A stretch of DNA of 64,000 nt from an uncultured Gammaproteobacteria bacterium (GTDB lineage: Bacteria; Patescibacteriota; Patescibacteriia; UBA9570), in assembly GCA_964385285.1 (NCBI GenBank), contig CAYLOJ010000002.1, positions 559 through 64,558 on the forward strand. Direction: 5' to 3'. Under the pieces are notes generated by a model. It was not told the origin of the DNA and ran no database searches. It saw only the letters and a program-made list of their open reading frames with translations. This document shows positions 31,233 to 64,000 of the stretch, in pieces. Position 1 is the first letter of the stretch. The number at the start of each line of letters is the position of its first letter. The translations under genes were made by a program, and so were the position numbers.

Positions 31233-31252
31233 TTCTCTATCCAAAAGCCGAC

Positions 31253-31879: not shown

Positions 31880-31897
31880 TTAGTTAATTGATTAGTA

Positions 31898-35189: not shown

Positions 35190-35583
35190 TTTCAAATCCT
35201 ACACTATATTAATCGTCGAAGATGAATCCTTCTTATCCAAAGTGTTAGCGGAACGGATGGAAGATGAAGGATTTGGTCGCATTACTGTGGCTGGAAATGG
35301 CGAAGAAGCATTAGAACAGGTGAAGGCGCATATCCCCAACATCATTTTATTAGATATGATTTTGCCACGCATGAATGGTTTTGAGGTCTTAGAGCACTTG
35401 CAGGCTGATCCTAAATTCAAAAAAATTCCCGTATTAGTACTGTCGAATCTTGGTCAAGATCAAGATATTGAACAGGCTAAAACACTTGGTGCTACCGACT
35501 ACATCGTCAAAAGTAATTTCTCGTTACAGAAAGTTGTAGAAAAAATTGTCACTATTTTGTCAGCGACCACTCCTAAAGCTTAA
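35179..35583 (+). CDS. Receiver-only (CheY-like) response regulator
   Basis: ILIVEDE...LLDMILPRMNGFEVL...VLSNLG...TDYIVKS. 134 aa with no output domain. Overlaps the kinase stop. Confidence 0.75.
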   Translation: MPIDFKSYTILIVEDESFLSKVLAERMEDEGFGRITVAGNGEEALEQVKAHIPNIILLDMILPRMNGFEVLEHLQADPKFKKIPVLVLSNLGQDQDIEQAKTLGATDYIVKSNFSLQKVVEKIVTILSATTPKA

Positions 35584-35588
35584 CGTGT

Positions 35589-37259: not shown

Positions 37260-37262
37260 CCT

Positions 37263-38327: not shown

Positions 38328-38329
38328 TT

Positions 38330-38776
38330 ATGGGCGTGGCCCGGGGTTTTTCTTACATTCAACTCCTACTCGTCATCACCATGTTGGCGGTATTGGCTGC
38401 AGTGGCTTCGCCGTATTATTTATCGTGGCAAACTCGTCAGCAAGTGCGTAGTACTAGTGCGATGTTATGGTCAGATCTTCACTATGCGCAAAGTCGAGCC
38501 ATGCAACTTGAACAATCGGACGCATGGGGCGTGCATATAAATCAGAGCCAACATGAATATGTGATTTTTCATGGTTCTACTTATGACAGTAGCGATCTCT
38601 ATAACGAAACAATTACCTATTCAGACGGCGTGACGATTACACCAGATACAGACATTGCATTTGCAGGTTTAACAGGCGCAGTTGCTAGTGACCTTACCTT
38701 AACCATTACGGCTAATGCCTTACCGAGTGAAAGCCGAACCATTACGATCAATGAAGAAGGTCTCATTTCACAATAA
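38330..38776 (+). CDS. Prepilin-type N-terminal domain protein (minor pilin/pseudopilin; Gln rather than Glu at +5)
   Basis: MGVARG^FSYIQLLLVITMLAVLAAVASPYY. Confidence 0.45.
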   Translation: MGVARGFSYIQLLLVITMLAVLAAVASPYYLSWQTRQQVRSTSAMLWSDLHYAQSRAMQLEQSDAWGVHINQSQHEYVIFHGSTYDSSDLYNETITYSDGVTITPDTDIAFAGLTGAVASDLTLTITANALPSESRTITINEEGLISQ

Positions 38777-41700
38777 TTCATCCGGGATATTAATCGTTGA
38801 GGCGGTCATTAGTATTGCTTTATTTGTGATATTTGCAGCCGGAGCGATCTACCTTTTAACTGCTTCTATTTTAACTAGTCGCACCGCACAACGTCATGCC
38901 ACAGCAGCAGCTTATGCGACCGAAGCAATTGAAGCAGTACAAACCATTGACCGGTTAGCTTGGAATGCATTAGCGGATAGTCCAGATAGTACATACGGCT
39001 TGGCTCTATCTGGTGATGATTGGACGCTCACTGCTGAGCCAGATCATCCTGATCTTGCTGGAGACTACACGCGCACCATTCAAATCAGTGATGTCTATCG
39101 TGATAGCAGTAATCTGATCACGGATACGGAGACGGGAAATACATTCGATCCTCATACACGCAAGGTCAATGTTACGATCGATTGGTCAAATGATACTGGT
39201 ACAGCACAGAGTCTAACCACTGCTACCTATTTAACCGATTGGGATGACTCGGCGTTGCAAGAGGATCTGGTGACCGATTGGACAGCGGGAACAGTTGATC
39301 ATTTGCGGGTCAGTAATCTAGATGATGGCGAACTGCAAATAGTACAACCCACTTTAGAGATCGGCACCGTCACCGCCACCAATAGTTGGCAGACCATTAC
39401 GTTATCCAATGAGTATGACGAGGCGGTTGTCGTAGCAAGTGTGTTAGATGGTAATAACCCAAATTCACCGGTGAGTGTACGGGTGCGCAACGTTACGGCC
39501 ACCACCTTTGATCTGCGCTTACAATTTCCAACTGATAACTTTGCACCTAGCACCACGAATAGTGAGCAGGTCAATTATATGGTCATTGAAGCTGGTGTCT
39601 GGACACTGGGAGATGGTAGTACAAAAATTGAAGCGGGGATTGTTCCGTCTGTTTCGCGCGTGAATTGTTCTACCTGTGGTAGCTGGAATCAGGGCACAGA
39701 TGTCTATTTTCAGAGTGGCTTTAGCACGGGTCCTGTAGTGTTACATCAAGTGATGACTGAGAATGATGCTTCGTGGATTACCACGTTTGCGTCGGATGAT
39801 ACCAATGCAGCACTGCCACCTGGCACAGATGGATTTCAAGTGGCATTAAATGGTGCTGAGGTGACTGCTGCGCATAGTGCCGAAGATATCGGCTATATCG
39901 CTTTTCAAAGTGAAACGACAGATCGTTTTGAAGGAGTTAAATTTGAAACCGATCTGACTGGCAATACGGTACGTGGTGCAACGGATGTGCATCGGGTTGA
40001 AAATTTTGATCAAACTTATACTGCCGCACCCATTGTGTTGACTAGCATGTTAACCGCACGTACTACGGAAGGTAACTGGGCTATGTTAGATAGTGTCACA
40101 GCCACGCGTGTCACGCTTTATGCAGATGAAGATCAAACCCTAGATGCAGAACGCACGCATGCTGTTGATTACGCTGGCTATGTGACCTTTGCGACAACCG
40201 GTACGTATTATTTAAACGCGGCCATTACTGCGTATGATGAACCACCCATGGAAGTGGGAGTGATCCGCGGCAGTGCGTCGGGACATATGGAGGTGGGCAC
40301 GACCACGGCGTCGAGTAGTTGGTCAACCATTACATTAACGAATACATACACTAAGCCAGTGGTGATTGTGAGTTTATTGGATGGCAATAATCCGAATAGT
40401 CCAGTTTCCACGCGCGTCAAGAATGCCAGTGGCAATAGTTTTGAGGTGCGTTTAGATTTTCCTAACGATCGCTTTGCGCCGGTCACTACGAATAGTGAGA
40501 CGGTCTATTACATGGTTGTGGAGGCTGGTGTTTGGTTAATGGGTGATGGTAAAACAAAGGTGGAAGCCAATATTGCTGAAGATGTTTCTCGGGTGAACTG
40601 TTTTACCTGTGGTTCATGGAATAATGGTACGCAGATTGTACACACCAGTGGTTACAGTGCCAATCCCGTATTTTTGCATCAAGTGATGAGTGAGAATAGT
40701 TCAGCTTGGATCAGCTCCTTTGCTTCCAATAGTACGGATTATCGTAGCCCACCAGGCACGAATGGTTTTCGCATTGCACTGAACGGTGCTAGTGTCACCT
40801 CCACCCATGCCGCAGAAGACATCGGTTATGTGGTAATGGAGACAGAAAAAGTGGACACTGCTAATAGTATTCAGTATGAGACAGATACCACAGGGATTAG
40901 TGTACGTGGCTTCGACGATGCGCGTTACAGTGAAAGTTTTGATCAAGCCTATACTACAGCTCCATTAGTATTGGTTTCACAGTTAGGCATGCGTGGCACC
41001 GAGGGAAGTTGGGCGATGATAGATAGTATTACTACTACCACCCTCACTATGTATGAAGATGAGGATCAAGCAACCGATCGTGAACGGTCGCACCAAGCGG
41101 AATATTACGCGTATTCGGCATTTGCATCCGCGGGTAGCTTCACTCTAACGGATCAGACGTTTTTGCAAAATCCAGTGAGTATTTCTTTGAATAATACCTA
41201 CACGAATCCCGTGGTCATCACGACTCCATTTTTTACGAATGATCAAAATTCGCCAGCGTCAGTACGGGTGTATGATGTGACTAGTAATAGTTTTACAGCA
41301 AAACTAGATTTTCCAACTGATCGTTTTACACCTACCAATACCAGCTATTCTAACGATGTGTATTATATGGTGATTGAAGCGGGGACCTGGCAAATTGGTG
41401 ATCTGAAGATTGAAGCTCATGTGGACAATATTTCTACTGTGAATTCATTAACGAATGGATGGACCGGCACAACCACAACTTTTGATCATGCCTTTACGGC
41501 TGCACCCATTGTATTGCAACAAGTGATGAGTAATAGTGATACGGCCTGGATTACCACCTGGCTCGCGCGCACGGCTGATCGCACTAATCCTCCTTCCTAC
41601 ACCTCAATGCAGATCGGTTTGAATGCAGCTGAGGTGGCCACAAGTAATGCGCATGGTCCGGAAGATGTGGGTTGGGTCGCCTTTTCGAACATTGGGTCTG

Positions 41701-42338
41701 GCACTGTAGATGCATATGATTTTAGAACTTTCTTTCAGTTAGATTTGCCGTTTGGGCATCAAAATGGTTGCTATACATTTACACCTGGTGATACCTATGC
41801 TGATCCGATTCCACTCATTTCACAAATGAGCATGGATGGAGCGGAGGGTTCGTGGCCTTCGATCTGTTCATTATCTACTACGACGGTTGGTGTGCACGTG
41901 GAAGAAGATGATTATTTAGATAGCGAGCGCTCGCATACAGATGAGGCCATTGGCGCTATTGTCTTTGATGGTGCATTTGCCTATGCAGGCAGCACTAACC
42001 CAGATAACCATACCAGTGGTACCTATGAATCTCCGGTATTAGGTGATAGCGCACTCTGGCGCAACTTCAATATTGTGCAATGGGTAGAAGATATCGATTG
42101 TGCCAATTGTGCAATCGAAATCCAGGTGCGGACAGGCGATTCTGTTGGGGCAGTCGGCAGCGCTACCTACATTGGTCCGGATGGTACTGCTGATACCTAT
42201 TATGATAGCTCTGCTGGGGCACTACTTAGCTTAGAACATCTGAGCCAGCCCTATATTCAGTATCAGGTCACCATGCGTGGTTCTACGGTGCGTTCGCCAA
42301 TATTTTACGATGCTACCATTTGGGGCTATGCACAATAA
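38751..42338 (+). CDS. Giant pilin-like protein (1196 aa) with a prepilin N-terminus and three tandem ~280-aa internal repeats (putative tip adhesin)
   Basis: MKKVSFHNNSSG^ILIVEAVISIALFVIF has Glu at +5. Repeats at about 39365-40205, 40297-41125 and 41166-41960 share W-TI-L-N-Y-PVV...GNNPNSPVS-RV, YMV-EAGVW-GDG-TK-EA, SRVNC-TCGSWN and FDQ-YT-AP-VL...TEG-WAM-DS. Confidence 0.5.
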   Translation: MKKVSFHNNSSGILIVEAVISIALFVIFAAGAIYLLTASILTSRTAQRHATAAAYATEAIEAVQTIDRLAWNALADSPDSTYGLALSGDDWTLTAEPDHPDLAGDYTRTIQISDVYRDSSNLITDTETGNTFDPHTRKVNVTIDWSNDTGTAQSLTTATYLTDWDDSALQEDLVTDWTAGTVDHLRVSNLDDGELQIVQPTLEIGTVTATNSWQTITLSNEYDEAVVVASVLDGNNPNSPVSVRVRNVTATTFDLRLQFPTDNFAPSTTNSEQVNYMVIEAGVWTLGDGSTKIEAGIVPSVSRVNCSTCGSWNQGTDVYFQSGFSTGPVVLHQVMTENDASWITTFASDDTNAALPPGTDGFQVALNGAEVTAAHSAEDIGYIAFQSETTDRFEGVKFETDLTGNTVRGATDVHRVENFDQTYTAAPIVLTSMLTARTTEGNWAMLDSVTATRVTLYADEDQTLDAERTHAVDYAGYVTFATTGTYYLNAAITAYDEPPMEVGVIRGSASGHMEVGTTTASSSWSTITLTNTYTKPVVIVSLLDGNNPNSPVSTRVKNASGNSFEVRLDFPNDRFAPVTTNSETVYYMVVEAGVWLMGDGKTKVEANIAEDVSRVNCFTCGSWNNGTQIVHTSGYSANPVFLHQVMSENSSAWISSFASNSTDYRSPPGTNGFRIALNGASVTSTHAAEDIGYVVMETEKVDTANSIQYETDTTGISVRGFDDARYSESFDQAYTTAPLVLVSQLGMRGTEGSWAMIDSITTTTLTMYEDEDQATDRERSHQAEYYAYSAFASAGSFTLTDQTFLQNPVSISLNNTYTNPVVITTPFFTNDQNSPASVRVYDVTSNSFTAKLDFPTDRFTPTNTSYSNDVYYMVIEAGTWQIGDLKIEAHVDNISTVNSLTNGWTGTTTTFDHAFTAAPIVLQQVMSNSDTAWITTWLARTADRTNPPSYTSMQIGLNAAEVATSNAHGPEDVGWVAFSNIGSGTVDAYDFRTFFQLDLPFGHQNGCYTFTPGDTYADPIPLISQMSMDGAEGSWPSICSLSTTTVGVHVEEDDYLDSERSHTDEAIGAIVFDGAFAYAGSTNPDNHTSGTYESPVLGDSALWRNFNIVQWVEDIDCANCAIEIQVRTGDSVGAVGSATYIGPDGTADTYYDSSAGALLSLEHLSQPYIQYQVTMRGSTVRSPIFYDATIWGYAQ

Positions 42339-42342
42339 CTGG

Positions 42343-42840
42343 ATGATTAAATTACGTCATGGTTTTTCACTCTTTGAGGTGATTGTGTATATTGCGATCA
42401 TTAGCGTGGTGATGACCGCAGTCTTAAGTATCGTTGCACGCAGTGTGTTAAATCGTGTGAAAGCGGAGGCGCTGTTTAGTGTCACTAGTAGTACTCGCTT
42501 TGCGATGGAACGCATGGTGCAAGATATCCGGGCCGCTGCGGATATTGATGAGACAGATTTAGCCAGTAACGTACTGACGGTCGAATCAGCTCAAGGGGTG
42601 ATTCGGCAGTACGCGGTGATTAATGATCAATTAACTGTCTCTACCAACGGCGCTACTCCCATTGCCCTCACCCCAGACAACCTGATGGTGACCGAGTTTA
42701 GCCTGGCTGATCGCACTACAGTGGGGACTGCTACAACCGCGGTGGAAGTGACCTTAACACTGGAAACGGTCAGTACTAATCCTAGCCCTGAATACCATGC
42801 CGATTTTAGTTTAGAAACTACTGCTACGAGTCGTTTATGA
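42343..42840 (+). CDS. Prepilin-type pseudopilin
   Basis: MIKLRHG^FSLFEVIVYIAIISVVMTAVLSIVA has Glu at +5. Confidence 0.55.
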   Translation: MIKLRHGFSLFEVIVYIAIISVVMTAVLSIVARSVLNRVKAEALFSVTSSTRFAMERMVQDIRAAADIDETDLASNVLTVESAQGVIRQYAVINDQLTVSTNGATPIALTPDNLMVTEFSLADRTTVGTATTAVEVTLTLETVSTNPSPEYHADFSLETTATSRL

Positions 42841-43235
42841 AAATCACGCGAATTTTACCACCAGGCTATGCCGCCTTAATCACTGTAGTGATGGTCATGT
42901 TAACCGTTACAGCCATTGGCTTCACTCTCACGGTGCTTAGTGCTGATAATCTATTAAGTACTCTGCGGTATGATGCCGGCATCCAAACACAAGCTGTGGC
43001 AGACAGTTGCGCATATGAGGCCGCTTTACAGATGCGTGATCTCGGGTTGGCCTATGTGGGTACACATACACTGACTATTGGTGAAGATCAATGCACGATG
43101 ATCGTGACTAATACGAGTGGAACAATCTTGGAGGTAGCGATTGATGCACAGCATGACCAATATCATCGTTTAGTAGAACAGACCATGGACGTCAGTGATG
43201 ATCGTATCTTGCTCTGGCAGGAAGTAGGCGATTAA
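42837..43235 (+). CDS. Hypothetical minor pilus component (membrane-anchored)
   Basis: N-terminal hydrophobic segment (LPPGYAALITVVMVMLTVTAIGF), non-canonical for prepilin. Sits in the pilus operon. Confidence 0.3.
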   Translation: MKITRILPPGYAALITVVMVMLTVTAIGFTLTVLSADNLLSTLRYDAGIQTQAVADSCAYEAALQMRDLGLAYVGTHTLTIGEDQCTMIVTNTSGTILEVAIDAQHDQYHRLVEQTMDVSDDRILLWQEVGD

Positions 43236-43250
43236 GCTACAATTATTTTC

Positions 43251-44279
43251 ATGCGCATCTTAGGACTCAATTTATCTGATGCTTCCGCCGAACTTGTCGA
43301 ATTGAGTGGTGGTTTATTGCAACGTCCAGGTTGGACCACACATCTTCGAGTTGAGCTATCGGAAGGGATCGTAACGAACGGCATTATTCATGATGTCAGT
43401 CTATTGGCGAGCAAGTTAAAAGGGCAGTTTCGCCCGGGCAATTTAGCGATGTCCATTCCTGAATCTCAAGTGTATTCCCGTTGGTTGCGTTTTCCTGCCA
43501 AGACAAAACTCAGTGAAATTCGCGCGACGATCGCTCAACATGCGGCTGAATATTTTCCGTTTGAGGCTCATGAGATTGTGTTTGATTGCGTTTCCGCTGG
43601 CCAACACGGAGAATCGCAAGATGTCTTTACAGCAGCTGTACCACATTTGGTTTTGAATAGCTACCGTGAATTTGCTAAGGCTTTGGATTGTACATTAGTT
43701 AGGTTAGAACTAGAGTCACTTAGTTCTGCCCGCGCGACTCTACCTAGTTTGCCTAAGGTCGGCGCTACGCTATTATTAGATATTGGAGCACGGACTACAA
43801 TCGCCAGTTGGTTTACTGATCAGGGTTTGCGTTTCACGTTCAATGTGCCGTTGGCAGGGCAATATTTTACCGAACGGATTCAGCAAGGCTTAAAATTGAC
43901 TGCACTAGAAGCCGAGCGTCTGAAGCAAACACAGGGACTCAGCGGAAAAGTGGAATCAGTGTTAGTTGCGGCTTTAGAACCATTGGTGAAGTCGCTGAAT
44001 GAGGGGATTAGTTATGTGCAATCAGAGTGGCAGATTGATACCAAAGCAATCGTATTGATTGGCGGGTCTTCCCAGTTGCCAAAATTAGCGGATTATCTAG
44101 CCACTCAATTTCAGGTTACTACCAACTTACCACCAGCGTTGCCCTGGCAAACCACATATGGTATGGTATCTGCGTCAGATCAGGAGGGGAATTATATGCT
44201 TAATGCCGTAGGGTTAGCCCTAGGTGAGCTAAAGGCCTATCGTGACTGGCCAACCGTTAACTTTTTAAATACAAAATAA
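43251..44279 (+). CDS. pilM: Type IV pilus assembly protein PilM (actin-like ATPase)
   Basis: N-terminus MRILGLNLSDASAELVEL. C-terminal LIGGSSQLPKLADYLATQF. Actin/Hsp70-like fold within the pilus operon. Confidence 0.7.
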   Translation: MRILGLNLSDASAELVELSGGLLQRPGWTTHLRVELSEGIVTNGIIHDVSLLASKLKGQFRPGNLAMSIPESQVYSRWLRFPAKTKLSEIRATIAQHAAEYFPFEAHEIVFDCVSAGQHGESQDVFTAAVPHLVLNSYREFAKALDCTLVRLELESLSSARATLPSLPKVGATLLLDIGARTTIASWFTDQGLRFTFNVPLAGQYFTERIQQGLKLTALEAERLKQTQGLSGKVESVLVAALEPLVKSLNEGISYVQSEWQIDTKAIVLIGGSSQLPKLADYLATQFQVTTNLPPALPWQTTYGMVSASDQEGNYMLNAVGLALGELKAYRDWPTVNFLNTK

Positions 44280-44282
44280 GTT

Positions 44283-44765
44283 ATGAAAGTTCTCCGTAAG
44301 TTCCGTCGTGGTTTTACACTCGTTGAATTGCTCATCGTGATTGCAGTGATCTCTATTTTGGCAGCGGTTGCCTTTGTGGCTATTGATCCAGCTACGCGTA
44401 TTAATCAAGCTCAAGATTCAGAGCGTTGGAGTGCAGTGAATGCGTTAATGGATGCATTTTTAGATTCCACAGTTGATAATGATGGCAACTATCCAGCCGG
44501 TGTCTCGGCCAATGGTACAGTACATATGATTTCTAGCAGCGGTACTTGCACAGACGCAATTTCTGGTTGCCCAACAGCCGTCAGTACCTGCACAGATTTT
44601 GATTCCTTAGTCACCGATGGTTATATTGCAAGTTTGCCGGCAGACCCTGATGGTGTCACCACATATGGTGGCGGCTATGGATATACGCTATCGGTTGCTT
44701 CGAATGGCATCGTTTCCGTTGCCTCCTGTGGTGCGGAAGAAGACACGATTGAAGTGTCCCGCTAA
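44283..44765 (+). CDS. pilA: Type IV major pilin
   Basis: MKVLRKFRRG^FTLVELLIVIAVISILAAVAFVAI is the canonical class III signal with Glu at +5. Cys pair in the C-terminal domain. Confidence 0.8.
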   Translation: MKVLRKFRRGFTLVELLIVIAVISILAAVAFVAIDPATRINQAQDSERWSAVNALMDAFLDSTVDNDGNYPAGVSANGTVHMISSSGTCTDAISGCPTAVSTCTDFDSLVTDGYIASLPADPDGVTTYGGGYGYTLSVASNGIVSVASCGAEEDTIEVSR

Positions 44766-54855: not shown

Positions 54856-55927
54856 CAAAACTGCCGTTGCTGGTGGCATGGTCGTCGGTATGATTATTGT
54901 GGCTGGTATTCTCCAAGTAAAGTTTTACTTTAATCCTCCGAAGGATAATTTTGACAATGAGATTGATTTTTTGTTAGATCGGCAAATGGCTTTATTGGCA
55001 GACAGCATCGATGATGCTCCGTTTGCTGATTCTGTGGATGCTCTGAGTGTCACACCAACGGAGTCTTCGCAACCGATCTATGGAGATTTTCAAACGATCA
55101 CACTTAGCACTGGAATCCCATTGGCTAGTCTAACGGAGACCGCTGGGGTGAGTAGTGTGGTGCTGCGTGGTAATCAATTATTACTAATGCAGTACGATCA
55201 ACAGTGGCAAGTTCGTCCGGATGGCGAACATGTCTTAATGACAGAGATTAGTCTGGTGAACGGCAAGGCTCCATTGGCTAGCCTGACATCGACGCCCAAT
55301 GGTTATCAACTGTTAATCACACAACCAACCGCTGTCGGTACGATTGTGAAAGTCATATCCATTGATGAGCAATTTGCGGTCACTACCACTAATAGTTTAG
55401 CAGTTGATCCAGTAGTGATGGCTGCTACAGGTAATACGCTGTGGAGTTATACTGTGGATGCTAAGTTACAGATTTATAGTATCGCGGAAGGAACGTTAGT
55501 GGCCGAACAAACCAATACACTTGTTCCGTGTAATTTGATTACGGATGGCGATAGTGTCATCGTTTTATCAGCACAAAGTGATCAGTTATTGTTTTCAAAG
55601 ATTTCAGCGGTGGGAGAGACTCGGTCCAAGATTATCGTGTCTGCAGCCGGCATTACCAGCTGCGTTGTCAGCGGGCGACTAAACCAGCACCTAGCGGTAG
55701 TACTGCCAAATACAATTCAATTATTTAATGATAATCTAACCGTCAGTTATCCAGCAGTCGATCTTCCGACCAATGCATTATTCCCTCTGATCGGATTCAG
55801 CGGAGAGCAACTGTGGGTCATGTACAGTACCTCAGAAACGTTAGGAGAGTATCAATTCCATGTCGCTATGTATGATCCGCTTGCAGTTGTAACACAGCCT
55901 GATGCAGCAAACGTGTATACAAATTGA
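54845..55927 (+). CDS. Hypothetical membrane-anchored protein
   Basis: N-terminal TM (AGGMVVGMIIVAGILQV). No recognised domain. Its 3' end overlaps the convergent mfd. Confidence 0.3.
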   Translation: MAYNKTAVAGGMVVGMIIVAGILQVKFYFNPPKDNFDNEIDFLLDRQMALLADSIDDAPFADSVDALSVTPTESSQPIYGDFQTITLSTGIPLASLTETAGVSSVVLRGNQLLLMQYDQQWQVRPDGEHVLMTEISLVNGKAPLASLTSTPNGYQLLITQPTAVGTIVKVISIDEQFAVTTTNSLAVDPVVMAATGNTLWSYTVDAKLQIYSIAEGTLVAEQTNTLVPCNLITDGDSVIVLSAQSDQLLFSKISAVGETRSKIIVSAAGITSCVVSGRLNQHLAVVLPNTIQLFNDNLTVSYPAVDLPTNALFPLIGFSGEQLWVMYSTSETLGEYQFHVAMYDPLAVVTQPDAANVYTN

Positions 55928-58187
55928 GACCGATTTGTTGCATGTGTCCATGTTGATTTTTCCCAAGAATATCGCCGACACCGCGAATCTCTAAATCTTT
56001 CATAGCCAATTCAAACCCTCCACCCAACTCTTTGATTGAATGCAAAGCACGCAGGCGTTCTTGGCCTTGTTTGGTTAAGTGTTGCTTAGAGTAGAGTAGA
56101 TACGCATAACCTTGAGTATGGCTTCGTCCGATTCTGCCGCGCAGTTGGTAAAGTTGAGCGAGCCCAAAATCTTCTGCATGTTCCACAATCAACGTATTGG
56201 CATTAGCGATATCTAAGCCATTTTCAATGATCGTAGAGGCAATCAGTACATCAATGTTGCCGCTATAGAATTCTTCCATGATATGAATCAGCCGATCTGC
56301 AGATAATTGGCCATGTGCAACTGCTACGGTATGCTTTGGGAAATGTTGATGTACAAAACTCTCTCGGACATGAATAGTGCTGAGATCATTGTGGACGAGA
56401 TAAACTTGGCCATCGCGTTCTAGTTCTTCATGGATGGCTTGCAGCTCAAGTTCGGGAGCAAATTCATTAATGATTGTTTTAACACCGAGGCGTTGTGGTG
56501 GGGCAGTGTTCAACACAGAGATATCGCGTAAGCCAGACATAGCTAAATTTAATGTCCGCGGAATGGGTGTGGCGGTCATCGTTAAGACATGCGCAGCGGC
56601 CCGCAAGGCTTTTAACCGTTCTTTATGCAACACACCAAAGCGTTGCTCTTCATCAATAATGACGCACTGTAACTTTGGAAATTGAATGTCACTCGATAAT
56701 AAACGATGCGTTCCGATCACAATATCTACTTGTCCAGCGCGAATTGCCCGCACTGTTTCTTTGGTTTGTTTAGGAGTTTGTAATCTAGACAAACAGCCTA
56801 CCTTTACGCCATAGCGTTCTAAGCGGCGATGAAATGTATGCCAATGCTGATCGGCCAAAACGGTAGTGGGGGCCAAAATGGCAACCTGTCCACCGCCTTG
56901 GAGTACAACATGGAGGGCGGCACGGAGTGCGACCTCTGTCTTCCCAAAACCGACATCACCACATAATAGGCGATCCATGGGCTTCTCTAAACTAAGATCA
57001 TTAAGAATGTCGACGATGGCTTCTTCTTGATCCGGTGTGAGCGTAAATTCAACATCTTGAGCACATGCAAGCTCTTCAGCGGCTTGGAGGTTAGGAATTG
57101 CACTTGCCTGGGCAGCATCGCGTTGGGCGTGTAGTTCCAATAGCTCTTTGGCAGTATGACGAACATCATCTTGTACGCGGTGCACAATGGTTTCCCACTG
57201 GGTGCCAGATAAACGTGTTAAACGGGGTTGGGCCTGACCAATATATTTTTCTACGCGATTAGCGGCCGATAGTGGAACGAATAGCTTGTCATTCCCCAAA
57301 TATTTTAATTTGAGATACTCTTCACCATCAATGGTTTGACGACCCTCAAATAAACCGATGCCGTGGTCGATATGAACAACATAGTCACCTAATTCCAAGT
57401 CACTGACATCAAGTACATTGGCGAAAGTGGCAATCGACTCTTCTTCGCCAAAAATATGTTCATCGGTTAAAAATAGGAAATGTTCAGCAGGAAACACAAA
57501 GCCATCTAGTAACTTTAATGGTGTGCTTATGGTGATCTCTGGTAAAAGCGTAACAATCTGTTCCGGATTGCGCGTGGCTACTTGAATGCGTAAATATTTC
57601 TCGGCATCCTGCTTCAGCAAGTTAAATCGCTTGTGATAAAATTTTGGAGTGACAAATTCGTATTGTAATTGCTCTTCCTCCCATAACGGCAGGTGAGCGG
57701 CATAGGCATGGGGATAAAACGTGATGTGATAAAGTTTGGGCCCCGATTGTTGGCTAGAGATATTGAAGCTATTCAGTTGTTCGATGGTATTGCCATCAAA
57801 TTCTAGGCGGACTGCAATATGATCCACGATATCAACGATATTGCCACGTACGGCAAAGGTACGAGGGGAGACTGCCCTGGGAAAGCGTTCAAATCCCATA
57901 GTCGTTAACTGTTGTGTTAACGTGGTGATGGATAGGTTTAATTTTGCTTCCAATTCTAAGGTTTGATGGTGGTACTCTTTGGTTGTAATGGTGTGTTCAT
58001 CCAGAAACAGTTGAGAGATAATGGTTTCTTCTGGAAAGGTGTCGTTGAAATAACGGGCTAGGGTACGTAGTTGGATGGCCTCCTTCTCAGATTGCGCTAA
58101 AAAAAAGACTGGCCCCGTATGTAGGAGAGGGGGTAAACGACGCGATAGCTCGAAGGCGATTTCTGTAAGAGTCCGGAAGTGCGGCAC
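55866..58187 (-). CDS. mfd: Transcription-repair coupling factor Mfd, short form (773 aa)
   Basis: CarD/TRCF RNAP-interacting domain DYVVHIDHGIGLFEG...EYLKLKYLGNDKLFVPL. SF2 helicase motifs GDVGFGKTEVALRA, VIIDEEQRFG, QLRGRIGRS. About 220 aa shorter at the N-terminus and about 80 aa shorter at the C-terminus than canonical Mfd. Confidence 0.75.
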   Translation of the reverse strand: MPHFRTLTEIAFELSRRLPPLLHTGPVFFLAQSEKEAIQLRTLARYFNDTFPEETIISQLFLDEHTITTKEYHHQTLELEAKLNLSITTLTQQLTTMGFERFPRAVSPRTFAVRGNIVDIVDHIAVRLEFDGNTIEQLNSFNISSQQSGPKLYHITFYPHAYAAHLPLWEEEQLQYEFVTPKFYHKRFNLLKQDAEKYLRIQVATRNPEQIVTLLPEITISTPLKLLDGFVFPAEHFLFLTDEHIFGEEESIATFANVLDVSDLELGDYVVHIDHGIGLFEGRQTIDGEEYLKLKYLGNDKLFVPLSAANRVEKYIGQAQPRLTRLSGTQWETIVHRVQDDVRHTAKELLELHAQRDAAQASAIPNLQAAEELACAQDVEFTLTPDQEEAIVDILNDLSLEKPMDRLLCGDVGFGKTEVALRAALHVVLQGGGQVAILAPTTVLADQHWHTFHRRLERYGVKVGCLSRLQTPKQTKETVRAIRAGQVDIVIGTHRLLSSDIQFPKLQCVIIDEEQRFGVLHKERLKALRAAAHVLTMTATPIPRTLNLAMSGLRDISVLNTAPPQRLGVKTIINEFAPELELQAIHEELERDGQVYLVHNDLSTIHVRESFVHQHFPKHTVAVAHGQLSADRLIHIMEEFYSGNIDVLIASTIIENGLDIANANTLIVEHAEDFGLAQLYQLRGRIGRSHTQGYAYLLYSKQHLTKQGQERLRALHSIKELGGGFELAMKDLEIRGVGDILGKNQHGHMQQIGLNLYTRLLHQAVLQLQADHT

Positions 58188-58225
58188 CTCTGTATTCTAA
58201 CAAAGATCCTCGTGGGATGGTAGGG

Positions 58226-58253
58226 CTTGACAACTCTCTGTTACCTGCTATAC
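58226..58253 (+). promoter_or_regulatory. Candidate promoter (TTGACA-16-TATACT) with no downstream CDS for about 220 nt
   Basis: TTGACA at 58226-58231, TATACT at 58248-58253. The downstream 200 nt ends in a T-rich run. Confidence 0.3.
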
Positions 58254-58432
58254 TGGCGCCGCTTTTGCACTTTCTATCGCGTTGCAGTGCTACTAGAACT
58301 AGCGCTCAGCCATCCAGATGTATGGGTTGGTCGGATATGCTCACTCCTCCTAAAGCATGCCGATCACTCAAGTAGGCTTTTGTCTCACCTATACATTTGG
58401 ATGATTGAGCGTTTTTTTGTTTTTTACTCCTC

Positions 58433-58461
58433 TTGAAATTAATTGAAAATTCTGTTATAAT
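58433..58461 (+). promoter_or_regulatory. Sigma70-like promoter (TTGAAA-17-TATAAT) for CDS 58474 (12 nt from -10 to ATG; leaderless or near-leaderless)
   Basis: TTGAAA at 58433-58438, a 17-nt spacer, TATAAT at 58456-58461. Confidence 0.55.
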
Positions 58462-58473
58462 ATTTATCACCAA

Positions 58474-58818
58474 TTGTTTATGGATCCACGCCTACATACA
58501 TATTTAAAGCATCTGCTTAATACAGCTCACCATTTACAGGGTGATCGCACGATGCCCGCACCGTTAGCTGAAAAAATGCTTGCGGATCTTCATATTCAGC
58601 TGGAACAGCGCTTAACTGCAACCTTAGTAGATCAATTGCCAGAAGAGGATCAAGAGGCGTTTGCAGCCCTAACTGCCACTACACCTGATCAAAAAGCGGT
58701 GTTTGATTTTTTGAATGCCAAAGTCCCGAATGCGGAAGCAGTCATACAGGTTGTTTTAGTAAAATTTGAAGAGGACTATATTAGTATTGTGAATCGCGGT
58801 AAAGCCAATGCCAATTAG
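58474..58818 (+). CDS. Small hypothetical protein (114 aa), translationally coupled to the giant ORF
   Basis: ORF overlapping the next gene's start by 11 nt. No recognised motif. Confidence 0.35.
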   Translation: MFMDPRLHTYLKHLLNTAHHLQGDRTMPAPLAEKMLADLHIQLEQRLTATLVDQLPEEDQEAFAALTATTPDQKAVFDFLNAKVPNAEAVIQVVLVKFEEDYISIVNRGKANAN

Positions 58819-61800
58819 TAACGAACATTATCAGAAGGTGTTAGAAACACGTACACCTGCAGCTGCGTTCAGTGTTGATCAGTTTCGTAGTGCACTAAAG
58901 CATAAAGAATTGGCTGGAGTTTTGACTGATGAAACAAACCCAGAGGCAGTTTCAGTTTTAACGACCTTAGCTGAACAAGCCAAACTACATGGCTTGGAGA
59001 TCTCTGATTTAGATCACACGCTTCAAGAAATTTCTGAGCAGTTGGATATTGAAGCCAATAGTGTAGCTCGTCATGAGCACGAGGCGGATCGTAAAGGAAC
59101 AAGTCTGTTGAATATTCCACATATAGTGGCGGTGCGTTGGAACAGTATGTTGGAGACATTCGGTAAAGGTGTTATTGCAAAGCGCGCCGATGAACAACGT
59201 AAACAACGCCTGTCAGATAAAGATTATATTGCTCAGGTGACGGCAGCAGCGATTGAACGCGCATCGTTACGCAAGCGTTTCCAAGAATATATTGCCATTG
59301 GAGGCTCCGACTTTAGCCAGCGATTGCAAGAGTATATGCATGGCTCCGTTACGCGTGAGTCGGTAGAAAAATCCAAACAGTTTGGAGATGGTGTCGATGC
59401 CATTGTGCAGCAGATTGACTTGCCTAAACCGTTTGAAATCGACGGAGTTGAAATTGAGGCGACGCCGGAAAATTTGGCGATGATTCGTAATCATCTGAGG
59501 TTTGTTATTTCTGATGAAGTCATTCAGTTAGCACAATTGAGTCAGATGCGCGTCATGGAAACCGATGTTTACCATGTGACGGCGAAACGCGATGGCGGCA
59601 AAATGGGGACGCTGCTTTCTAAAGTCCTTGGTTCCGGTACTCTGTGGGGAATGACAATTCGCGGCGGTAGTCGCGCCATCGGAATCGGAGGCTCCATTGT
59701 GGGCGCTAGCTTTGCGGCGAGCCCAGTTGGTTGGAGTGTGTTAGCAGCGGCTGTTGGCACAGGTGCTGTAGCTGGCTATGTTTCCCAGTGGGCGCAATAC
59801 AAATTTGTGCGTCGTCAACAGAAGAAAATGGATTTAGCCACTGGGGCATTGCGAGAGACAGTTGCCATTACTGATCACGATGAAACCGGGGAAAAAATCG
59901 GTGAACGACAAGTTGAGGTCGTGAAAAGCGCCGAGCAAATTAATCATCAATTAAAGGCGGAGGTAGATAAAATTTCCAATTTAGTAACCGCGTTGCAAGA
60001 TGGCGGATTGACCGATTACACACCATTAGAGGAAGCCATTACTGCGGCCTATCGGATTATGATGGATGCTGAGTGTCGCTTATTGCAATCCAAACCCACT
60101 GAAGACAATGCTGAGAAGCAGGATCTGATTTCGTTCGGGATGACAAATCGTTTGCAAGCAGGATTAGATCTAGTCAAGAATTTGAAACAAGCTGCCCTGG
60201 TAGTGCGTGATGCGAAACAGATCGTCAAGCGGAAACGGTATGGTGATTTCTCCAGCAGTGCACAATTGGAGGAACAGTTGCGCAACATCGCAGTGGCCAG
60301 TCGTCAGGAAATTTCCGCTGTAAAAGAAAATTTAGAACGAGCTCTATTAAAAGGAGAAGGAAAGCGTCGGATCATGAGTGCTGTCGTAGGCGGAAGTTTT
60401 GCCGGACTATCGTCCGTAGCCATGGATTATTTCCATCATTGGTTTGGCGAGCACGACGTATCGCCCGCGCAGGCGCCGAGCTTTGAGCATCAGCAGACAG
60501 TCACGGTACATCAAGCTGGTGCCGAATATACAGTGAGTGCTGTTGATCAGCATCAGCTAATGGTACAGGCCGCGGATGGTCAGCAAGAGTTGATTACTCT
60601 ACCCGATGGTGTAGAAACAAATCACATTGTAATCGATGATCAGTTCCAGCTCTATCAAGCAGCTACGGGCGAGCCAGTAGCAGCAATTCACCTGGAATTT
60701 GCAACGGCGGAGACACTGAAGGTGCCTGAGTTAGCCGTATCGTTAGATGTAGATCATTATGCGCCCATTGATATCCAAGGCCATCAATTTGGGATGGTGG
60801 TGAATCAAGATGGCAACCTGGCCTTATATCAGATGAAATTGGATGGCACTGTAGATTTGTCACAGCCGGTTGGCCATACCCCAATGCAGATTTTTTCTGA
60901 GCCGTTACATCAGAAATTTTCCGCCTTGGCACAGACAGATCCTACTCAGGCGACAGAACTCATCAAAGCAGCTAGTAAATTGAATGTCGAAACTCAACCC
61001 GACGGTACAGTCTTGGTAAAATCCGTGTACGATCAATCCATCGTGGCTCAATTTAAAATTGAAACGAGCGGAGTGGTAACCGTGCCTGAGCCGACCACAA
61101 CCCCAGTTTCTGGAGATGTTATTAGCAAATTATTTGCGGATCCGAATAGCGAGGTTGCGCAGGCATTGAATAAAATGGGCGTACAAGCCGGTGAAGTGAG
61201 TGTAGACGCGCAAGGTCATCTGCAGATCCCTGATGCAGCGGTGCGTGGAGAATATTTAGGTCAAACAGCCGGTTGGCGTCAGATGCGTCTAACGTTGCTG
61301 TTAGAAGCGTATCAATCCGGTAAAATATCTGGTACAGAACCGGCAGATGTGGTGGTTGCACGTTTAGAGCGTGCCACTCGTCATCTGCTGATGGAGTCGG
61401 GAAAATATCACGATCCTCAATCTGCCTTAAATGAGGCCTTTGGTAAACCAGCTGACTTTATTGCTAAAAATGAGTTGCCCTTTGTGAATGGGGCCAAGAG
61501 CAATATTGGTGGTCAGTGGGGCGAGTTAGTGGATACCATGCGTCGTGTATCGGTTGATCATCCTGCGGTTGAACAGGCAGCTGCGGTAGGTGATCCTGCC
61601 ACTGCCATTGCAGAAGCCAACCTCATGCCAGATGCTTTGGTCAATGTACATCCTATTACACCGGAACAGTTATTTGAGCACGCAGCTGATTTACAAGCCA
61701 GCACTGCAGCCACAGAAGCTGTGCACCAAGCGTGGAGTCAAGTGGCTGAGCAGAGTGCGAACCTAGTGCTAGGTATAGTTGGTGGTGCTTTAGATTCTTC

Positions 61801-63247
61801 ACTATCTGCCTCGCATTTAATCGGCCGACGGCAGTCAGATCAAATTGAACACGGCACACAACTGCCACCGTTTGTGTTTTCTCCAGAATTTTCTGGCGGT
61901 GACGATGAGGAAGACCTGAGCGTTCCCGCCAAGGCTGAACCCACCAAAGTGGAGGTCGCACACGATGCGAGTGTAGATTATGATGCGGTAGTAGCGGTGT
62001 TACGTCCAGAAGTTACGCAGTCGGAATATATGTATAGATGGCTGAAAAGGGATTATTGGGACAATGACAAAATGAGCACGACCGATGAAGTTAAATTAAT
62101 CACACAGTGCAATGAGATTCTCAAGTTAGTGCAGATTAATATTGGTAATACGGATCAAGCAATCTTGGAGGCTAAAGTGATAGGCAGGGATCCTGATCAG
62201 TTAATAAAATATCTTAATGAGGCCAGTATTGAGGCTATTCGGAAAAAAAATGAGATTGATCAGCATGCAGCACAGCGCGCTAACAAAAAAATGGACGCGG
62301 CTCAGGCGCAATTAAATGGCCTAAACGGACTGGGGCATGTAATTGACGTAGGGGTATTACAAGTACGTATAAATAGCATGCAAGCGATCGATCGTGAATT
62401 GCAAGACGTAGCCAATAATGTCTCAGTTGTCATGGCGTTTCCTGGAACGGTCGAAGCTAGGTTGCGGAGTGTCCGTGGGGAACTAGCAAGCGCTCAAGCT
62501 CGCATCGGTGAACGTATTCGCGCAATCGAACAAGAACAACGGAATCTGGAGCAATTTGAACGTATGCTCACGGAGACATTTAAATCAGCTGAGTTCAGCA
62601 AAGCGCTGCTCGCGGAATTTCGAACGCTGGGCTTGGGCTTACCTGAACAAGGGGCGGGTGTGGTGATGTTAAACAATAACTTTAAGCGTCTGGTGCGGCA
62701 GCAACCTTATCTTAACGATCTACTCATTGCTGGTAAACCTGTGTTGTCCGCGATTAGCGTGGATCTTGCTGATCCAGCAACAGTGCGGACATTAGCAACC
62801 CATATACAAGCCGCTGTCGGCCGGGCTGAAGCAAATCCGAACATTATTCAGTTAGCTAATATTCCGGAACGCCTGCAATGGCAAATCAATGATAAGCTAG
62901 ATACGATTGTACGTGGATTTGGGCTTGGCAAGAAGTTTGGTACTCAACTGGCCGCACATCTCAATGCGAAGTTATCAGCACAGGACGCACAGGTAGCTGC
63001 ACTGGCCTGGTTTAATGAGCAGTGGAATCGTGTGCTCCAAAAAGACGCTGCCCTGAATACAGCTTCGACCGAGCAAAAATTAAAACGATTGAATTGTTTT
63101 GATGCTGCCGATCGGTGGGATGATGCCAAAGTGGCTCAATTATTTGATCGTATTATGGCTAAAGATCAAACGCTATTCGCAGATAGTCCCGCTCCAGATT
63201 CCATTGCAACACGTCTGAATAAACGTTTAGGTGATCCTGATTTCTAA
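58808..63247 (+). CDS. Giant hypothetical protein (1479 aa) with a glycine-zipper hydrophobic segment and coiled-coil-rich regions
   Basis: Uninterrupted 4.4 kb ORF. Gly-zipper AIGIGGSIVGASFAASPVGWSVLAAAVGTGAVAGYV followed by KFVRRQQKK. Extended heptad-like regions near the C-terminus. No recognised catalytic motif. Confidence 0.45.
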   Translation: MPISNEHYQKVLETRTPAAAFSVDQFRSALKHKELAGVLTDETNPEAVSVLTTLAEQAKLHGLEISDLDHTLQEISEQLDIEANSVARHEHEADRKGTSLLNIPHIVAVRWNSMLETFGKGVIAKRADEQRKQRLSDKDYIAQVTAAAIERASLRKRFQEYIAIGGSDFSQRLQEYMHGSVTRESVEKSKQFGDGVDAIVQQIDLPKPFEIDGVEIEATPENLAMIRNHLRFVISDEVIQLAQLSQMRVMETDVYHVTAKRDGGKMGTLLSKVLGSGTLWGMTIRGGSRAIGIGGSIVGASFAASPVGWSVLAAAVGTGAVAGYVSQWAQYKFVRRQQKKMDLATGALRETVAITDHDETGEKIGERQVEVVKSAEQINHQLKAEVDKISNLVTALQDGGLTDYTPLEEAITAAYRIMMDAECRLLQSKPTEDNAEKQDLISFGMTNRLQAGLDLVKNLKQAALVVRDAKQIVKRKRYGDFSSSAQLEEQLRNIAVASRQEISAVKENLERALLKGEGKRRIMSAVVGGSFAGLSSVAMDYFHHWFGEHDVSPAQAPSFEHQQTVTVHQAGAEYTVSAVDQHQLMVQAADGQQELITLPDGVETNHIVIDDQFQLYQAATGEPVAAIHLEFATAETLKVPELAVSLDVDHYAPIDIQGHQFGMVVNQDGNLALYQMKLDGTVDLSQPVGHTPMQIFSEPLHQKFSALAQTDPTQATELIKAASKLNVETQPDGTVLVKSVYDQSIVAQFKIETSGVVTVPEPTTTPVSGDVISKLFADPNSEVAQALNKMGVQAGEVSVDAQGHLQIPDAAVRGEYLGQTAGWRQMRLTLLLEAYQSGKISGTEPADVVVARLERATRHLLMESGKYHDPQSALNEAFGKPADFIAKNELPFVNGAKSNIGGQWGELVDTMRRVSVDHPAVEQAAAVGDPATAIAEANLMPDALVNVHPITPEQLFEHAADLQASTAATEAVHQAWSQVAEQSANLVLGIVGGALDSSLSASHLIGRRQSDQIEHGTQLPPFVFSPEFSGGDDEEDLSVPAKAEPTKVEVAHDASVDYDAVVAVLRPEVTQSEYMYRWLKRDYWDNDKMSTTDEVKLITQCNEILKLVQINIGNTDQAILEAKVIGRDPDQLIKYLNEASIEAIRKKNEIDQHAAQRANKKMDAAQAQLNGLNGLGHVIDVGVLQVRINSMQAIDRELQDVANNVSVVMAFPGTVEARLRSVRGELASAQARIGERIRAIEQEQRNLEQFERMLTETFKSAEFSKALLAEFRTLGLGLPEQGAGVVMLNNNFKRLVRQQPYLNDLLIAGKPVLSAISVDLADPATVRTLATHIQAAVGRAEANPNIIQLANIPERLQWQINDKLDTIVRGFGLGKKFGTQLAAHLNAKLSAQDAQVAALAWFNEQWNRVLQKDAALNTASTEQKLKRLNCFDAADRWDDAKVAQLFDRIMAKDQTLFADSPAPDSIATRLNKRLGDPDF

Positions 63248-63250
63248 GCT

Positions 63251-64000
63251 ATGGAACCCGGATCACGTGGTGAGCCACGTCCAGAGGTATTAGAAAAGTT
63301 TTCTGTCCAATGGTATATCAAGGAGCTACAAGATCTTTTTGTGATTGCTGATGAAGCTCGCACATCCGGCGCTCCGGAGTTTGGATATATCACTAGATTA
63401 TTAGAACGTCTATCCGTAGAGTTTGTGCAGGCGGACCAAATTCAAACTCACCATGATCAAGATTTGATTCAAACGTATCGTACCCGGGCAGCCACGTTAT
63501 CGCGTGGTACAGAGGAATTTTTTTCTACAGTTGAACTGGGTCGCTGGTTGCGTGTTTGCCAAGATGCCATCGCTAAAGGTCAAACTCCTGAGCAGATTAG
63601 TGCATGGATTACCCCCGTGCTGGAGCAAAAATTAGGGGACTATGGTCTTCGCTCCACTGAAGCTTCATCTGCACCAATTGCTCCTGTGTTACCACCAGAA
63701 CCAATTCAACCACTGCCAACTAAGCCAGTCGGTCCCAAAAAAAACGTGCGTCCTCAGCAATCACCGGTAGGTAAATTAGGGCTCGCCGCTACTATGGCTG
63801 CCGGCGCATTGGCTGGAGGATATTTACTAGCTGAGTATCTGAAGTCGGAGACAGCCGAGCCAACCGCCTGGCATGAACAGTATAGAGATATTCCACCTCA
63901 ACTATTAGAGCATGTTGTCGGCATTCCACATACTGAGCAACCTGTAGAATTTAAGCCCCAGGCTGATTGGAGAGAGTTAAATCCAGGTGTCTACCAATGG
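63251..64000 (+). CDS. Partial CDS (N-terminal 250 aa, continues beyond the window end); hypothetical, with a glycine-zipper segment
   Basis: ATG at 63251. MEPGSRGEPRPEVLEKF... LGLAATMAAGALAGGYLLA. No stop before the window edge. Confidence 0.3.
   Translation, partial: MEPGSRGEPRPEVLEKFSVQWYIKELQDLFVIADEARTSGAPEFGYITRLLERLSVEFVQADQIQTHHDQDLIQTYRTRAATLSRGTEEFFSTVELGRWLRVCQDAIAKGQTPEQISAWITPVLEQKLGDYGLRSTEASSAPIAPVLPPEPIQPLPTKPVGPKKNVRPQQSPVGKLGLAATMAAGALAGGYLLAEYLKSETAEPTAWHEQYRDIPPQLLEHVVGIPHTEQPVEFKPQADWRELNPGVYQW

Follow-up and report, generated by a model that had tools for sequence, protein, structure and literature searches.

A structured small RNA gene and a conserved DUF5663–giant protein gene pair at one locus of a Candidate Phyla Radiation genome

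We analysed a 64,000-nucleotide (nt) stretch of DNA, hereafter the window (contig CAYLOJ010000002.1 of assembly GCA_964385285.1, positions 559 to 64,558 of the forward strand), from an uncultured bacterium of the Candidate Phyla Radiation (CPR). We focus on its last part, where a gene for a small structured RNA is followed by three protein-coding genes. These encode a small protein of the Pfam family DUF5663, a giant protein of 1479 amino acids (aa), and a third open reading frame (ORF3) that runs off the end of the window. We read the region as two transcription units, a stand-alone small RNA and a DUF5663–giant protein–ORF3 operon. The features are as follows:

58227-58254, plus strand: promoter of the small RNA, TTGACA-16-TGcTATACT, 11 of 12 consensus positions, with an extended -10 TG
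58261-58425, plus strand: predicted structured small RNA gene of about 160 nt, its ends placed from the promoter and the U-run
58300-58414, plus strand: long three-way hairpin of the small RNA, preceded by a variable 5' portion
58342-58353, plus strand: invariant, C-rich apical loop of the small RNA, CACUCCUCCUAA
58412-58425, plus strand: U-run of the small RNA
58433-58461, plus strand: promoter of the operon, TTGAAA-17-TATAAT, TG-extended, 11 of 12 consensus positions
58480-58818, plus strand: DUF5663 gene (PF18908), 112 aa, five helices; an alternative upstream TTG lies at 58474
58808-63247, plus strand: giant protein gene, 1479 aa, its start overlapping the DUF5663 stop by 11 nt
63251-64000, plus strand: ORF3, partial (250 aa), with an ATG start, running off the window end
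63776-63832, plus strand: predicted membrane helix of ORF3 (aa 176-194), with a K/R-rich stretch ahead

An earlier interpretation made from the letters alone (the sequence-only reading) had proposed both promoter-like sites, and both are present, strong and conserved in related genomes. A consensus promoter scan of the region returned 6 sites with 9.7 expected, i.e. no excess; the weight of the two promoters comes from their conservation in related genomes and not from site counts. The -35 and -10 regions of the small RNA promoter are kept in three related loci (L001, L008 and L004), which together with the window make four RNA loci. In at least six of eight related loci, a site of the TTGACA-17-TATAAT type is found 9-25 nt ahead of the codon at which DUF5663 starts. 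An ORF scan recovered the proposed small ORF (58474-58818, plus strand, 114 aa from TTG) and the 1479-aa ORF overlapping it by 11 nt. The reading frame of the small ORF was thus described correctly, but its start was not: the DUF5663 homologs all begin MD(P)RLH and the database copy of the window protein has 112 aa, so the true start is ATG 58480, 18 nt past the -10 box.

No Shine-Dalgarno motif precedes the DUF5663 gene, as is the case for nearly all ORFs of the window (51 of the 52 start regions lack one). Many window ORFs have a TATAAT- or TATACT-like box 8-20 nt ahead of the start codon, so that mRNAs with a short leader or none at all seem to predominate in this genome. Because Shine-Dalgarno motifs are missing and -10-like boxes stand close to the starts, a promoter 18 nt before the DUF5663 ATG is the local norm and no oddity. 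From this single promoter, the genes for DUF5663, the giant protein and ORF3 would be transcribed as an operon with a short leader.

The first promoter had been suggested to drive a small RNA, a proposal now well supported by the fold, by covariance, and by conserved copies that have a promoter and U-run of their own. The 181 nt past this promoter form a long hairpin and then a U-run (-66.3 kcal/mol, z = -6.2), and none of 200 shuffles was as stable. L001 is syntenic with the window here, and its promoter and hairpin hardly differ from those of the window. The hairpin is 95% identical between the two loci, compared with 74.5% for the adjacent Mfd gene at the nucleotide level. A metagenome scan with a 20-mer of the loop identified one true homolog, in L008; the matches in L007, L009 and L010 lie inside coding sequence and were discarded as chance. 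A covariance model built from three copies led to a fourth in L004 at 115 bits, and scores range from 115 to 146 bits across the window, L001, L008 and L004. In the alignment of these four sequences, 97% of the cells are paired, and at 9 of the 41 pairs both partners have changed. The observed pairing or covariation was not reached in any of 500 shuffles, while slid controls had 26-46% of cells paired. Across the four copies the apical loop is invariant, as is the main stem over its inner 16 bp.

The four genomes present the RNA in three contexts, and each time a separate TTGACA..TGCTAnAnT promoter and a U-run come with it. In the window and L001 it precedes the DUF5663 gene. The L008 copy faces pth and der and has no DUF5663 gene close by, and the L004 copy is just downstream of the giant gene, facing a pth-sized ORF. 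Could the segment instead be a 5' leader or attenuator that controls read-through into the DUF5663–giant protein operon? It is directly upstream of the operon, on the same strand, in the window and L001, and the terminator-like hairpin at its end could be regulated. However, the operon has its own strong promoter past the U-run, and the L008 and L004 copies are away from DUF5663 or downstream of the giant gene. Moreover, about 200 extra nt (8525-8738) separate the element from the DUF5663 promoter in L001 and carry two more GC-rich, terminator-like hairpins that are absent from the window. We consider a leader role hardly probable. In our reading, 58261-58425 is a predicted independent and undescribed small RNA gene, separate from the protein operon, whose transcript would run from a strong promoter to a hairpin-plus-U terminator.

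The small RNA matches no family in an Rfam scan at gathering scores, 6S models included. Permissive Rfam scans with three copies returned plant or animal miRNA hairpin models alone, at 15-27 bits against gathering scores of 70-118. In overall build it resembles 6S-like or C-rich-loop small RNAs, which likewise have about 160 nt, a strong promoter, a long closing stem, an internal junction with a side hairpin, and an intrinsic terminator. Unlike 6S RNA, it lacks a large central bubble. Since both the C-rich apical loop and the inner duplex are invariant, the RNA may act by binding to a protein or to a second RNA molecule. An anti-Shine-Dalgarno mimic that titrates ribosome-binding sites was considered for the loop and rejected, given the near absence of Shine-Dalgarno motifs from the window ORFs. 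No site complementary to the loop was found within the window.

The small ORF ahead of the giant gene matches PF18908 at 30.2 bits (gathering cut-off 23.7) over profile positions 9-80 of 84, and homologs in L005 and other loci match this family as well. We know of no function assigned to it. An AlphaFold2 (AF2) model of the DUF5663 protein is all-alpha with five helices, at a predicted local distance difference test score (pLDDT) of 79.8. The DUF5663 subfamily that matches the giant family comprises 20 proteins at 90% identity.

Nine contexts were compared: the window, L001, L002, L003, L005, L011, L012/L013, L014 and L015. In all nine, the DUF5663 gene is immediately upstream of a giant-family gene, at spacings from a 14-nt overlap to a 15-nt gap. 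The genes upstream of the pair encode Mfd in the window and L001 and RelA/SpoT in L002, while arginyl-tRNA synthetase, a GT4 glycosyltransferase and a YfiH/Cu-oxidase_4 protein are encoded upstream in L005, L011, L012 and L015. In L014 the pair is flanked by a divergently oriented gene whose product exceeds 3582 aa and has a faint VWA match. Since the two genes stay together in at least three differing neighbourhoods, we regard them as a conserved unit. The promoter-driven pair of the sequence-only reading is borne out both by this arrangement and by the conservation of the promoter. A literature text search for the DUF5663 name found no mention, nor did a paper on Saccharibacteria genetics yield a match for giant proteins; the pairing with a giant protein is absent from the family description, as far as we checked. 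The pair provides a first genomic association for a Pfam family without assigned function. Where relatives of the giant protein and its DUF5663 partner have an NCBI name, it is Candidatus Kerfeldbacteria (two relatives are so labelled). On the strength of these names we place the source among the Patescibacteria (CPR), probably as a Kerfeldbacteria-like, ultra-small symbiont, and no longer among the Saccharibacteria as first supposed. The flanking protein of L014 (1-8011, minus strand), which is on a Kerfeldbacteria-labelled contig, is a second giant gene at a pair locus.

Only seven relatives of the giant protein were recovered by a word-indexed search; a profile search run exhaustively over 1.84 billion representatives identified 32 clusters, with full-length members of 1170-5105 aa. 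The family is rare and, as far as the searched libraries show, undescribed. Searches of Pfam, NCBIfam, PHROGs and PDB sequences with the giant protein and with profiles of its family gave no significant match, in line with the earlier statement that it lacks a recognisable catalytic motif or domain. About 12 relatives were likewise without matches, the tail domains of P0019 (below) aside. In the family alignment a core of about 950 residues is conserved and the tail is unalignable. Residues invariant in 20 sequences are G62, L63, G119, G121, L241, S276, W280, G319, G346, R424, L425, Q438, D439, F443, G444 and R448, and among them there is no catalytic-looking constellation. From sequence, alignment and AF2 model, the protein divides into the following segments, all encoded on the plus strand:

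58808-59662, aa 1-285: conserved all-helical N-terminal module, predicted cytoplasmic, 41-59% identical to relatives
59663-59785, aa 286-326: glycine-zipper hydrophobic hairpin, two helices of about 16-17 residues around P306-G308
59786-60367, aa 327-520: basic stretch, beta-hairpin and helical bundle, with invariant R424-L425 and Q438-D439..F443-G444..R448
60368-60445, aa 521-546: third, weakly hydrophobic Gly/Ala-rich helix (hydropathy 1.3-1.7), with KRR ahead
60485-61063, aa 560-752: beta-rich domain of four-strand meanders, AF2 pLDDT about 80-90
61115-61552, aa 770-915: conserved helical domain (W823-R-Q..R..L, ARLERATRH), 45-62% identical to relatives
61553-63247, aa 916-1479: fast-diverging tail, of which aa 916-1249 are 15-24% identical to relatives

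The glycine-zipper hairpin proposed for the giant protein is present and conserved across the family, and the peptide on which the proposal was based (AIGIGGSIVGASFAASPVGWSVLAAAVGTGAVAGYV) was located at residues 290-325. The hairpin segment, aa 286-326, is the best conserved part of the protein (62-77% identity) and is found in almost all family members. No signal peptide can be read at the N-terminus. The pLDDT of an AF2 model of residues 1-1019 from 20 sequences averages 73.4, and 712 residues reach at least 70. In aa 20-250 it shows long helices, most 10-residue blocks having a mean pLDDT of about 75-91, with a dip to 62-73 near aa 91-120. The model is laid out as follows:

Residues 1-250: helical bundle
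Residues 263-315: low confidence, the approach to the hairpin and its first half
Residues 310-345: long helix, the second half of the hairpin and the basic stretch
Residues 351-370: beta-hairpin
Residues 375-546: helices up to the third hydrophobic segment
Residues 564-751: beta-rich domain with a helical insert
Residues 770-913: helical domain, the highly conserved WRQ..ARLERATRH region
Residues 917-1019: low-confidence linker

The tail differs strongly among members. The giant protein shares a C-terminal domain of about 210 aa (aa ~1250-1465) only with the relatives P0002, P0005 and P0007 (E = 1e-14 to 1e-36). The giant protein (63200-63247), P0002 and P0005 end in a similar acidic motif (..GDPDF, ..DDDF, ..DPTF), perhaps a signal for sorting or binding, but a coincidence is possible with only three sequences. 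P0019 (L011, 8001-23318; 5105 aa) diverges most from the rest of the family and carries two domains in its tail, PP2C (E = 1e-7) and, at the C-terminus, a J domain (E = 3e-25) with the HPD motif. This J domain implies that the tail meets an Hsp70, either in the cell's own cytoplasm or in that of a host. P0019 also contains internal helical repeats of about 105 aa and a duplicated module of about 600 aa.

Amino-acid identity between the window and L001 falls from 89% for MscS, 84% for Mfd, 76% for an alpha/beta hydrolase and 72% for DprA to 59% for DUF5663 and 45% for both the giant protein and ORF3, the last over its first 130 residues only. Genes neighbouring the giant gene range from 60 to 89%. 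The giant core is 41-77% identical to relatives, and the length of family members varies three- to four-fold. This conservation gradient and length variation would fit an exposed or interface protein. The giant gene is single-copy and located among housekeeping and cell-wall genes, with recurrent envelope-related neighbours: GT4 and YfiH/Cu-oxidase_4 genes are found upstream in L005, L011, L012 and L015, and genes for an M15-like peptidase and a LysM protein downstream of the pair in L001.

ORF3 begins 4 nt past the giant gene and is probably on the same transcript, given this short gap. The encoded protein opens with a conserved soluble domain, continues with a single membrane helix and breaks off early in its ectodomain. 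At the same position L001 encodes a 950-aa protein, with whose N-terminus that of ORF3 shares 45% identity and to whose residues 609-648 the ectodomain start aligns. The L001 homolog has a membrane helix at about 568-588 and, at its end, a DdpX/VanX-like M15 domain, detected by NCBIfam DdpX (E = 2.8e-9) and by Pfam (E = 0.007), both below curated cut-offs. The zinc motifs of the LAS enzymes are present in it as HVRGYAYD (HxxGxAxD) and ERWH (ExWH), and the gene downstream encodes the LysM protein. These motifs were read in the L001 homolog; the window ends at ORF3 residue 250, before the domain. VanX/DdpX-type M15 (LAS) D-Ala-D-Ala metallopeptidases share these motifs with the homolog, which matches them weakly. 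The homolog differs from them in scores far below the cut-offs and in a single-pass tether with a novel cytoplasmic N-terminal domain. The sequence-only reading had called ORF3 another glycine-zipper protein. The hydrophobic segment it quoted (LGLAATMAAGALAGGYLLA) is present at residues 176-194, but the protein appears to be of a different kind, single-pass and with a homolog resembling an M15/LAS peptidase. ORF3 is best read as a putative membrane-tethered cell-wall peptidase, linked to the pair only in the window lineage.

The charges around the hydrophobic segments of the giant protein offer a guide to its topology. The flanks of the hairpin have mean net charges of +2.35 and +3.15 over 20 sequences; under the positive-inside rule, both positive ends would be cytoplasmic, and helices of only 16-17 residues make a re-entrant hairpin probable. 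The third helix has +1.15 before it (KRR) and -1.5 after it. If it spans the membrane, this implies an N-in/C-out signal-anchor, and everything past residue 546 would then be outside the cell. We infer the membrane topology of the giant protein, its binding by DUF5663 and a role at the surface or in the envelope. In the interpretation that we tentatively favour, the giant protein would be a scaffold of the envelope or surface, anchored in the membrane, and DUF5663 its dedicated partner. Cytoplasmic helical modules (aa 1-285 and 327-520) would flank a re-entrant hairpin that anchors the protein in the cell's own membrane, and the third weakly hydrophobic helix, after KRR, would serve as a signal-anchor. 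Outside, the beta-rich domain, a Pro/Thr linker, the conserved helical domain and the rapidly diversifying tail would form a stalk that contacts the cell wall or a host surface. DUF5663 would be an obligate small cytoplasmic partner, co-made through translational coupling, that may bind the N-terminal module of the giant protein as a chaperone, assembly factor or regulator. In the window lineage, ORF3 would contribute a membrane-tethered peptidoglycan peptidase.

Several observations weigh against this scaffold. The third helix is only marginally hydrophobic (1.3-1.7) and contains charged residues in some members, e.g. P0019 and P0014. The PP2C and J domains of P0019 normally work in the cytoplasm. 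In about 12 family members scanned there is no typical extracellular domain (Ig-like, lectin, LysM or SLH). The giant protein has a weak match to the stalk/paddle half of LeoBC, a cytoplasmic peripheral membrane protein. As for the proposed partner, the DUF5663 protein has no PDB sequence match, and a Foldseek search of its model against PDB was uninformative. A LysM-like motif thought to be seen in P0010 was dropped, as Pfam has no match there at E up to 1.

A possible but doubtful alternative is that the giant protein is wholly cytoplasmic and that its hairpin dips into the inner leaflet like the paddle of dynamin-like proteins and mitofusins. The third helix would perhaps insert too, and the helical modules would be a stalk. 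The variable tail would stay in the cytoplasm as a platform to which certain lineages bring chaperones (J domain) or signalling enzymes (PP2C). Such a protein would shape or tether membranes, or act as a scaffold in division or polarity, without a GTPase. The hairpin itself agrees with this, with its helices of about 16-17 residues and both flanks positive, as expected for a re-entrant element. So do the weak hydrophobicity of the third helix, the PP2C and DnaJ domains in the P0019 tail, and the single-copy gene among housekeeping genes. There is also the PADLOC match to LeoBC, in which aa 70-484 align to profile positions 304-584 of 601 (E = 7e-7, 26.8 bits); 6 of 20 family members match LeoBC and none matches another PADLOC family. 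LeoC and LeoB form a split bacterial dynamin-like protein (Michie et al., PMC4159319), and LeoB consists of a middle domain, a glycine-rich hydrophobic membrane-binding region and a C-terminal helix, i.e. has its elements in the same order (PMC4159319). The LeoB sequence of enterotoxigenic Escherichia coli (ETEC) indeed shows a Gly-rich hydrophobic stretch, then a basic stretch and helices. More generally, the giant protein has its helical bundle, glycine-rich hydrophobic hairpin, basic stretch and helices in the order seen in LeoBC, BDLP1 and mitofusins, which have a helical stalk with a glycine-rich hydrophobic paddle (PMC4159319). Against such a relationship, hhalign of the family profile with ETEC LeoB aligned 28 columns beside the hairpin at a probability of 0.7%, and with LeoA it aligned nothing. 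Neither Pfam nor hhalign against LeoA and LeoB indicates a dynamin-type GTPase domain in the giant protein; there is no P-loop and no Dynamin_N match. A PDB fold search with the whole model contained no dynamin-like protein in the top 50. The KRR-hydrophobic-acidic pattern of the third helix resembles a signal-anchor, and very fast divergence and Pro/Thr linkers are more typical of exposed proteins. The giant protein is also far larger than LeoBC and BDLP1 and has a beta domain and a variable tail that they lack. On present evidence it appears not to be a dynamin-like protein, and the likeness would be one of layout.

It is unlikely that the giant protein is an exported pore-forming or host-membrane-inserting effector for which DUF5663 is the cytoplasmic chaperone, keeping the hairpin out of the producer membrane until delivery, with PP2C and J domains acting in the host cytoplasm. 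Small chaperones paired with hydrophobic effectors occur as translocator–class II chaperone pairs in type III secretion systems and as Eag chaperone–effector pairs, the effectors with transmembrane domains, in type VI secretion systems. As in those pairs, a small helical protein is here encoded upstream of a large, moderately hydrophobic one, and in all nine contexts; the likeness concerns gene organisation only, as there is neither sequence or fold similarity nor a linked secretion system. The hypervariable tail, hydrophobic segments that are moderately and not strongly hydrophobic, and P0019 domains that would make sense in a host cell are consistent with this proposal, as is an organism that is probably an episymbiont (judged by its CPR affiliation and the type IV pilus cluster in the window). 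However, Pfam, PDB and fold libraries show no likeness to a pore-forming toxin, translocator or toxin domain, and neither a recognised secretion system nor an immunity-like gene consistently accompanies the pair in the contexts examined. The hairpin flanks follow the positive-inside rule as in a resident membrane protein, the conserved part is a 950-residue N-terminal core and not a short trafficking domain, and the single-copy gene retains its synteny among housekeeping genes. The pore-forming role put forward by the sequence-only reading has no specific support: the positive flanks are those of a hairpin resident in the cell's own membrane, and the gene is single-copy among housekeeping and cell-wall genes. 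The host interaction put forward with it is possible, by inference only. The idea that the giant ORF is a disguised tape-measure, SMC, defence-system or mobile-element protein is effectively refuted. It is a long, helix-rich protein with hydrophobic Gly-rich segments, as are some tape-measure proteins, and it has the weak PADLOC match. However, there is no PHROG match, tblastn was empty in 50,697 phage records, and tape-measure models in BFVD were matched at E of 0.09 or above with TM-scores of at most 0.1. Foldseek against BFVD gave meaningless long alignments with TM-scores no higher than this. No SMC/Rad50 or ABC ATPase motif, Pfam or NCBIfam match or visible P-loop was found, and the AF2 model has bundles and a beta domain, not an ATPase-headed coiled coil. 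In PADLOC, the LeoBC match stands alone, without a LeoA partner, and DUF5663 and ORF3 have no match. Neighbours of the family include Mfd, DprA, TopA, tRNA synthetases and ribosomal proteins; genes of phages or for integrases are absent, and the GC content equals that of the flanks. Foldseek of giant residues 1-1019 against PDB returned nothing at E of 0.001 or below; the best matches were beta-propellers (BamB, WD40, YxaL), with BamB at E = 2.7e-3 and a TM-score of about 0.1, and these probably reflect the beta-rich domain. The ORF is also intact (1170-5105 aa) in all relatives found, and neither an SMC nor a tape-measure identity emerged for it.

Giant membrane proteins have already been recognised in CPR episymbionts (PMC8080830). 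The ten longest proteins of Vampirococcus lugosii have 1392-4163 aa and are membrane-localised, with a proposed role in surface or host contact; they carry WD40, TPR, PKD and saposin domains, and the genome encodes type IV pili (PMC8080830). Like them, the giant family consists of very large, lineage-specific, putative membrane proteins in a CPR genome with type IV pili. Unlike them, it has no known domain, a fixed N-terminal core of about 950 residues with a glycine-zipper hairpin, and an obligate DUF5663 partner gene; the likeness is by description, with no homology shown. The giant family, its link to DUF5663 and the small RNA are undescribed as far as we checked. A more ambitious combination of these elements, in which the core is a GTPase-less dynamin/mitofusin stalk-paddle relative that tethers or fuses the episymbiont with the host membrane, the tail is cargo for the host cytoplasm (PP2C and an Hsp70-requiring J domain in one relative), DUF5663 is a chaperone and the RNA is a new housekeeping-level riboregulator of the CPR lineage, strikes us as very unlikely as a whole.

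CPR bacteria make up a large share of bacterial diversity and most are thought to live attached to other cells; their envelope and host-interface molecules are almost unknown. The locus defines a two-gene module of DUF5663 and a putative giant glycine-zipper membrane protein. A fixed core with a swappable tail, in a rare and fast-evolving family, is the pattern expected of a surface or interface protein. The locus also provides a new structured RNA that is better conserved than the neighbouring protein-coding genes, in a genome apparently without Shine-Dalgarno-based initiation. We regard the RNA and the giant family as leads for how these cells build or use their surface, rather than as discoveries.

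Beyond the operon, the Mfd gene (55866-58187, minus strand, 773 aa) is directly upstream of the small RNA promoter. The two are transcribed divergently, back to back, within about 40 nt (58188-58260). A TAGAAT box stands about 8 nt before the GTG start of this Mfd gene. The protein of 773 aa is short; Mfd has about 1150 aa in model bacteria. The window also encodes ParAB, a small RelA/SpoT, TopA, DprA, MscS, a macro-domain protein and three tRNAs. Its type IV pilus cluster (34128-44765, plus strand) includes a PilB-like ATPase (35589), PilM (43251) and pseudopilins (42277 and 44283). Inside the cluster, a 1207-aa protein (38715-42338), whose sole match is a weak H-type lectin, may be a giant pilus-associated adhesin.

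Two further loci in the window stand out. A GC-rich island (10946-13729, minus strand; GC content 0.53-0.55, compared with about 0.45 elsewhere in the window) encodes a 927-aa ORF with a Peptidase_M23 match and a MopE-like metal-binding motif, and may be a horizontal acquisition or a compositionally odd secreted protein. At 31081-33433 (plus strand), a cobalamin riboswitch (38 bits, exceeding the gathering score) is directly followed by genes for two DUF4430-containing proteins, one of which also has a prenyltransferase/terpene-cyclase-like toroid. The arrangement has the appearance of a binding or uptake module under B12 control, here in a CPR genome.

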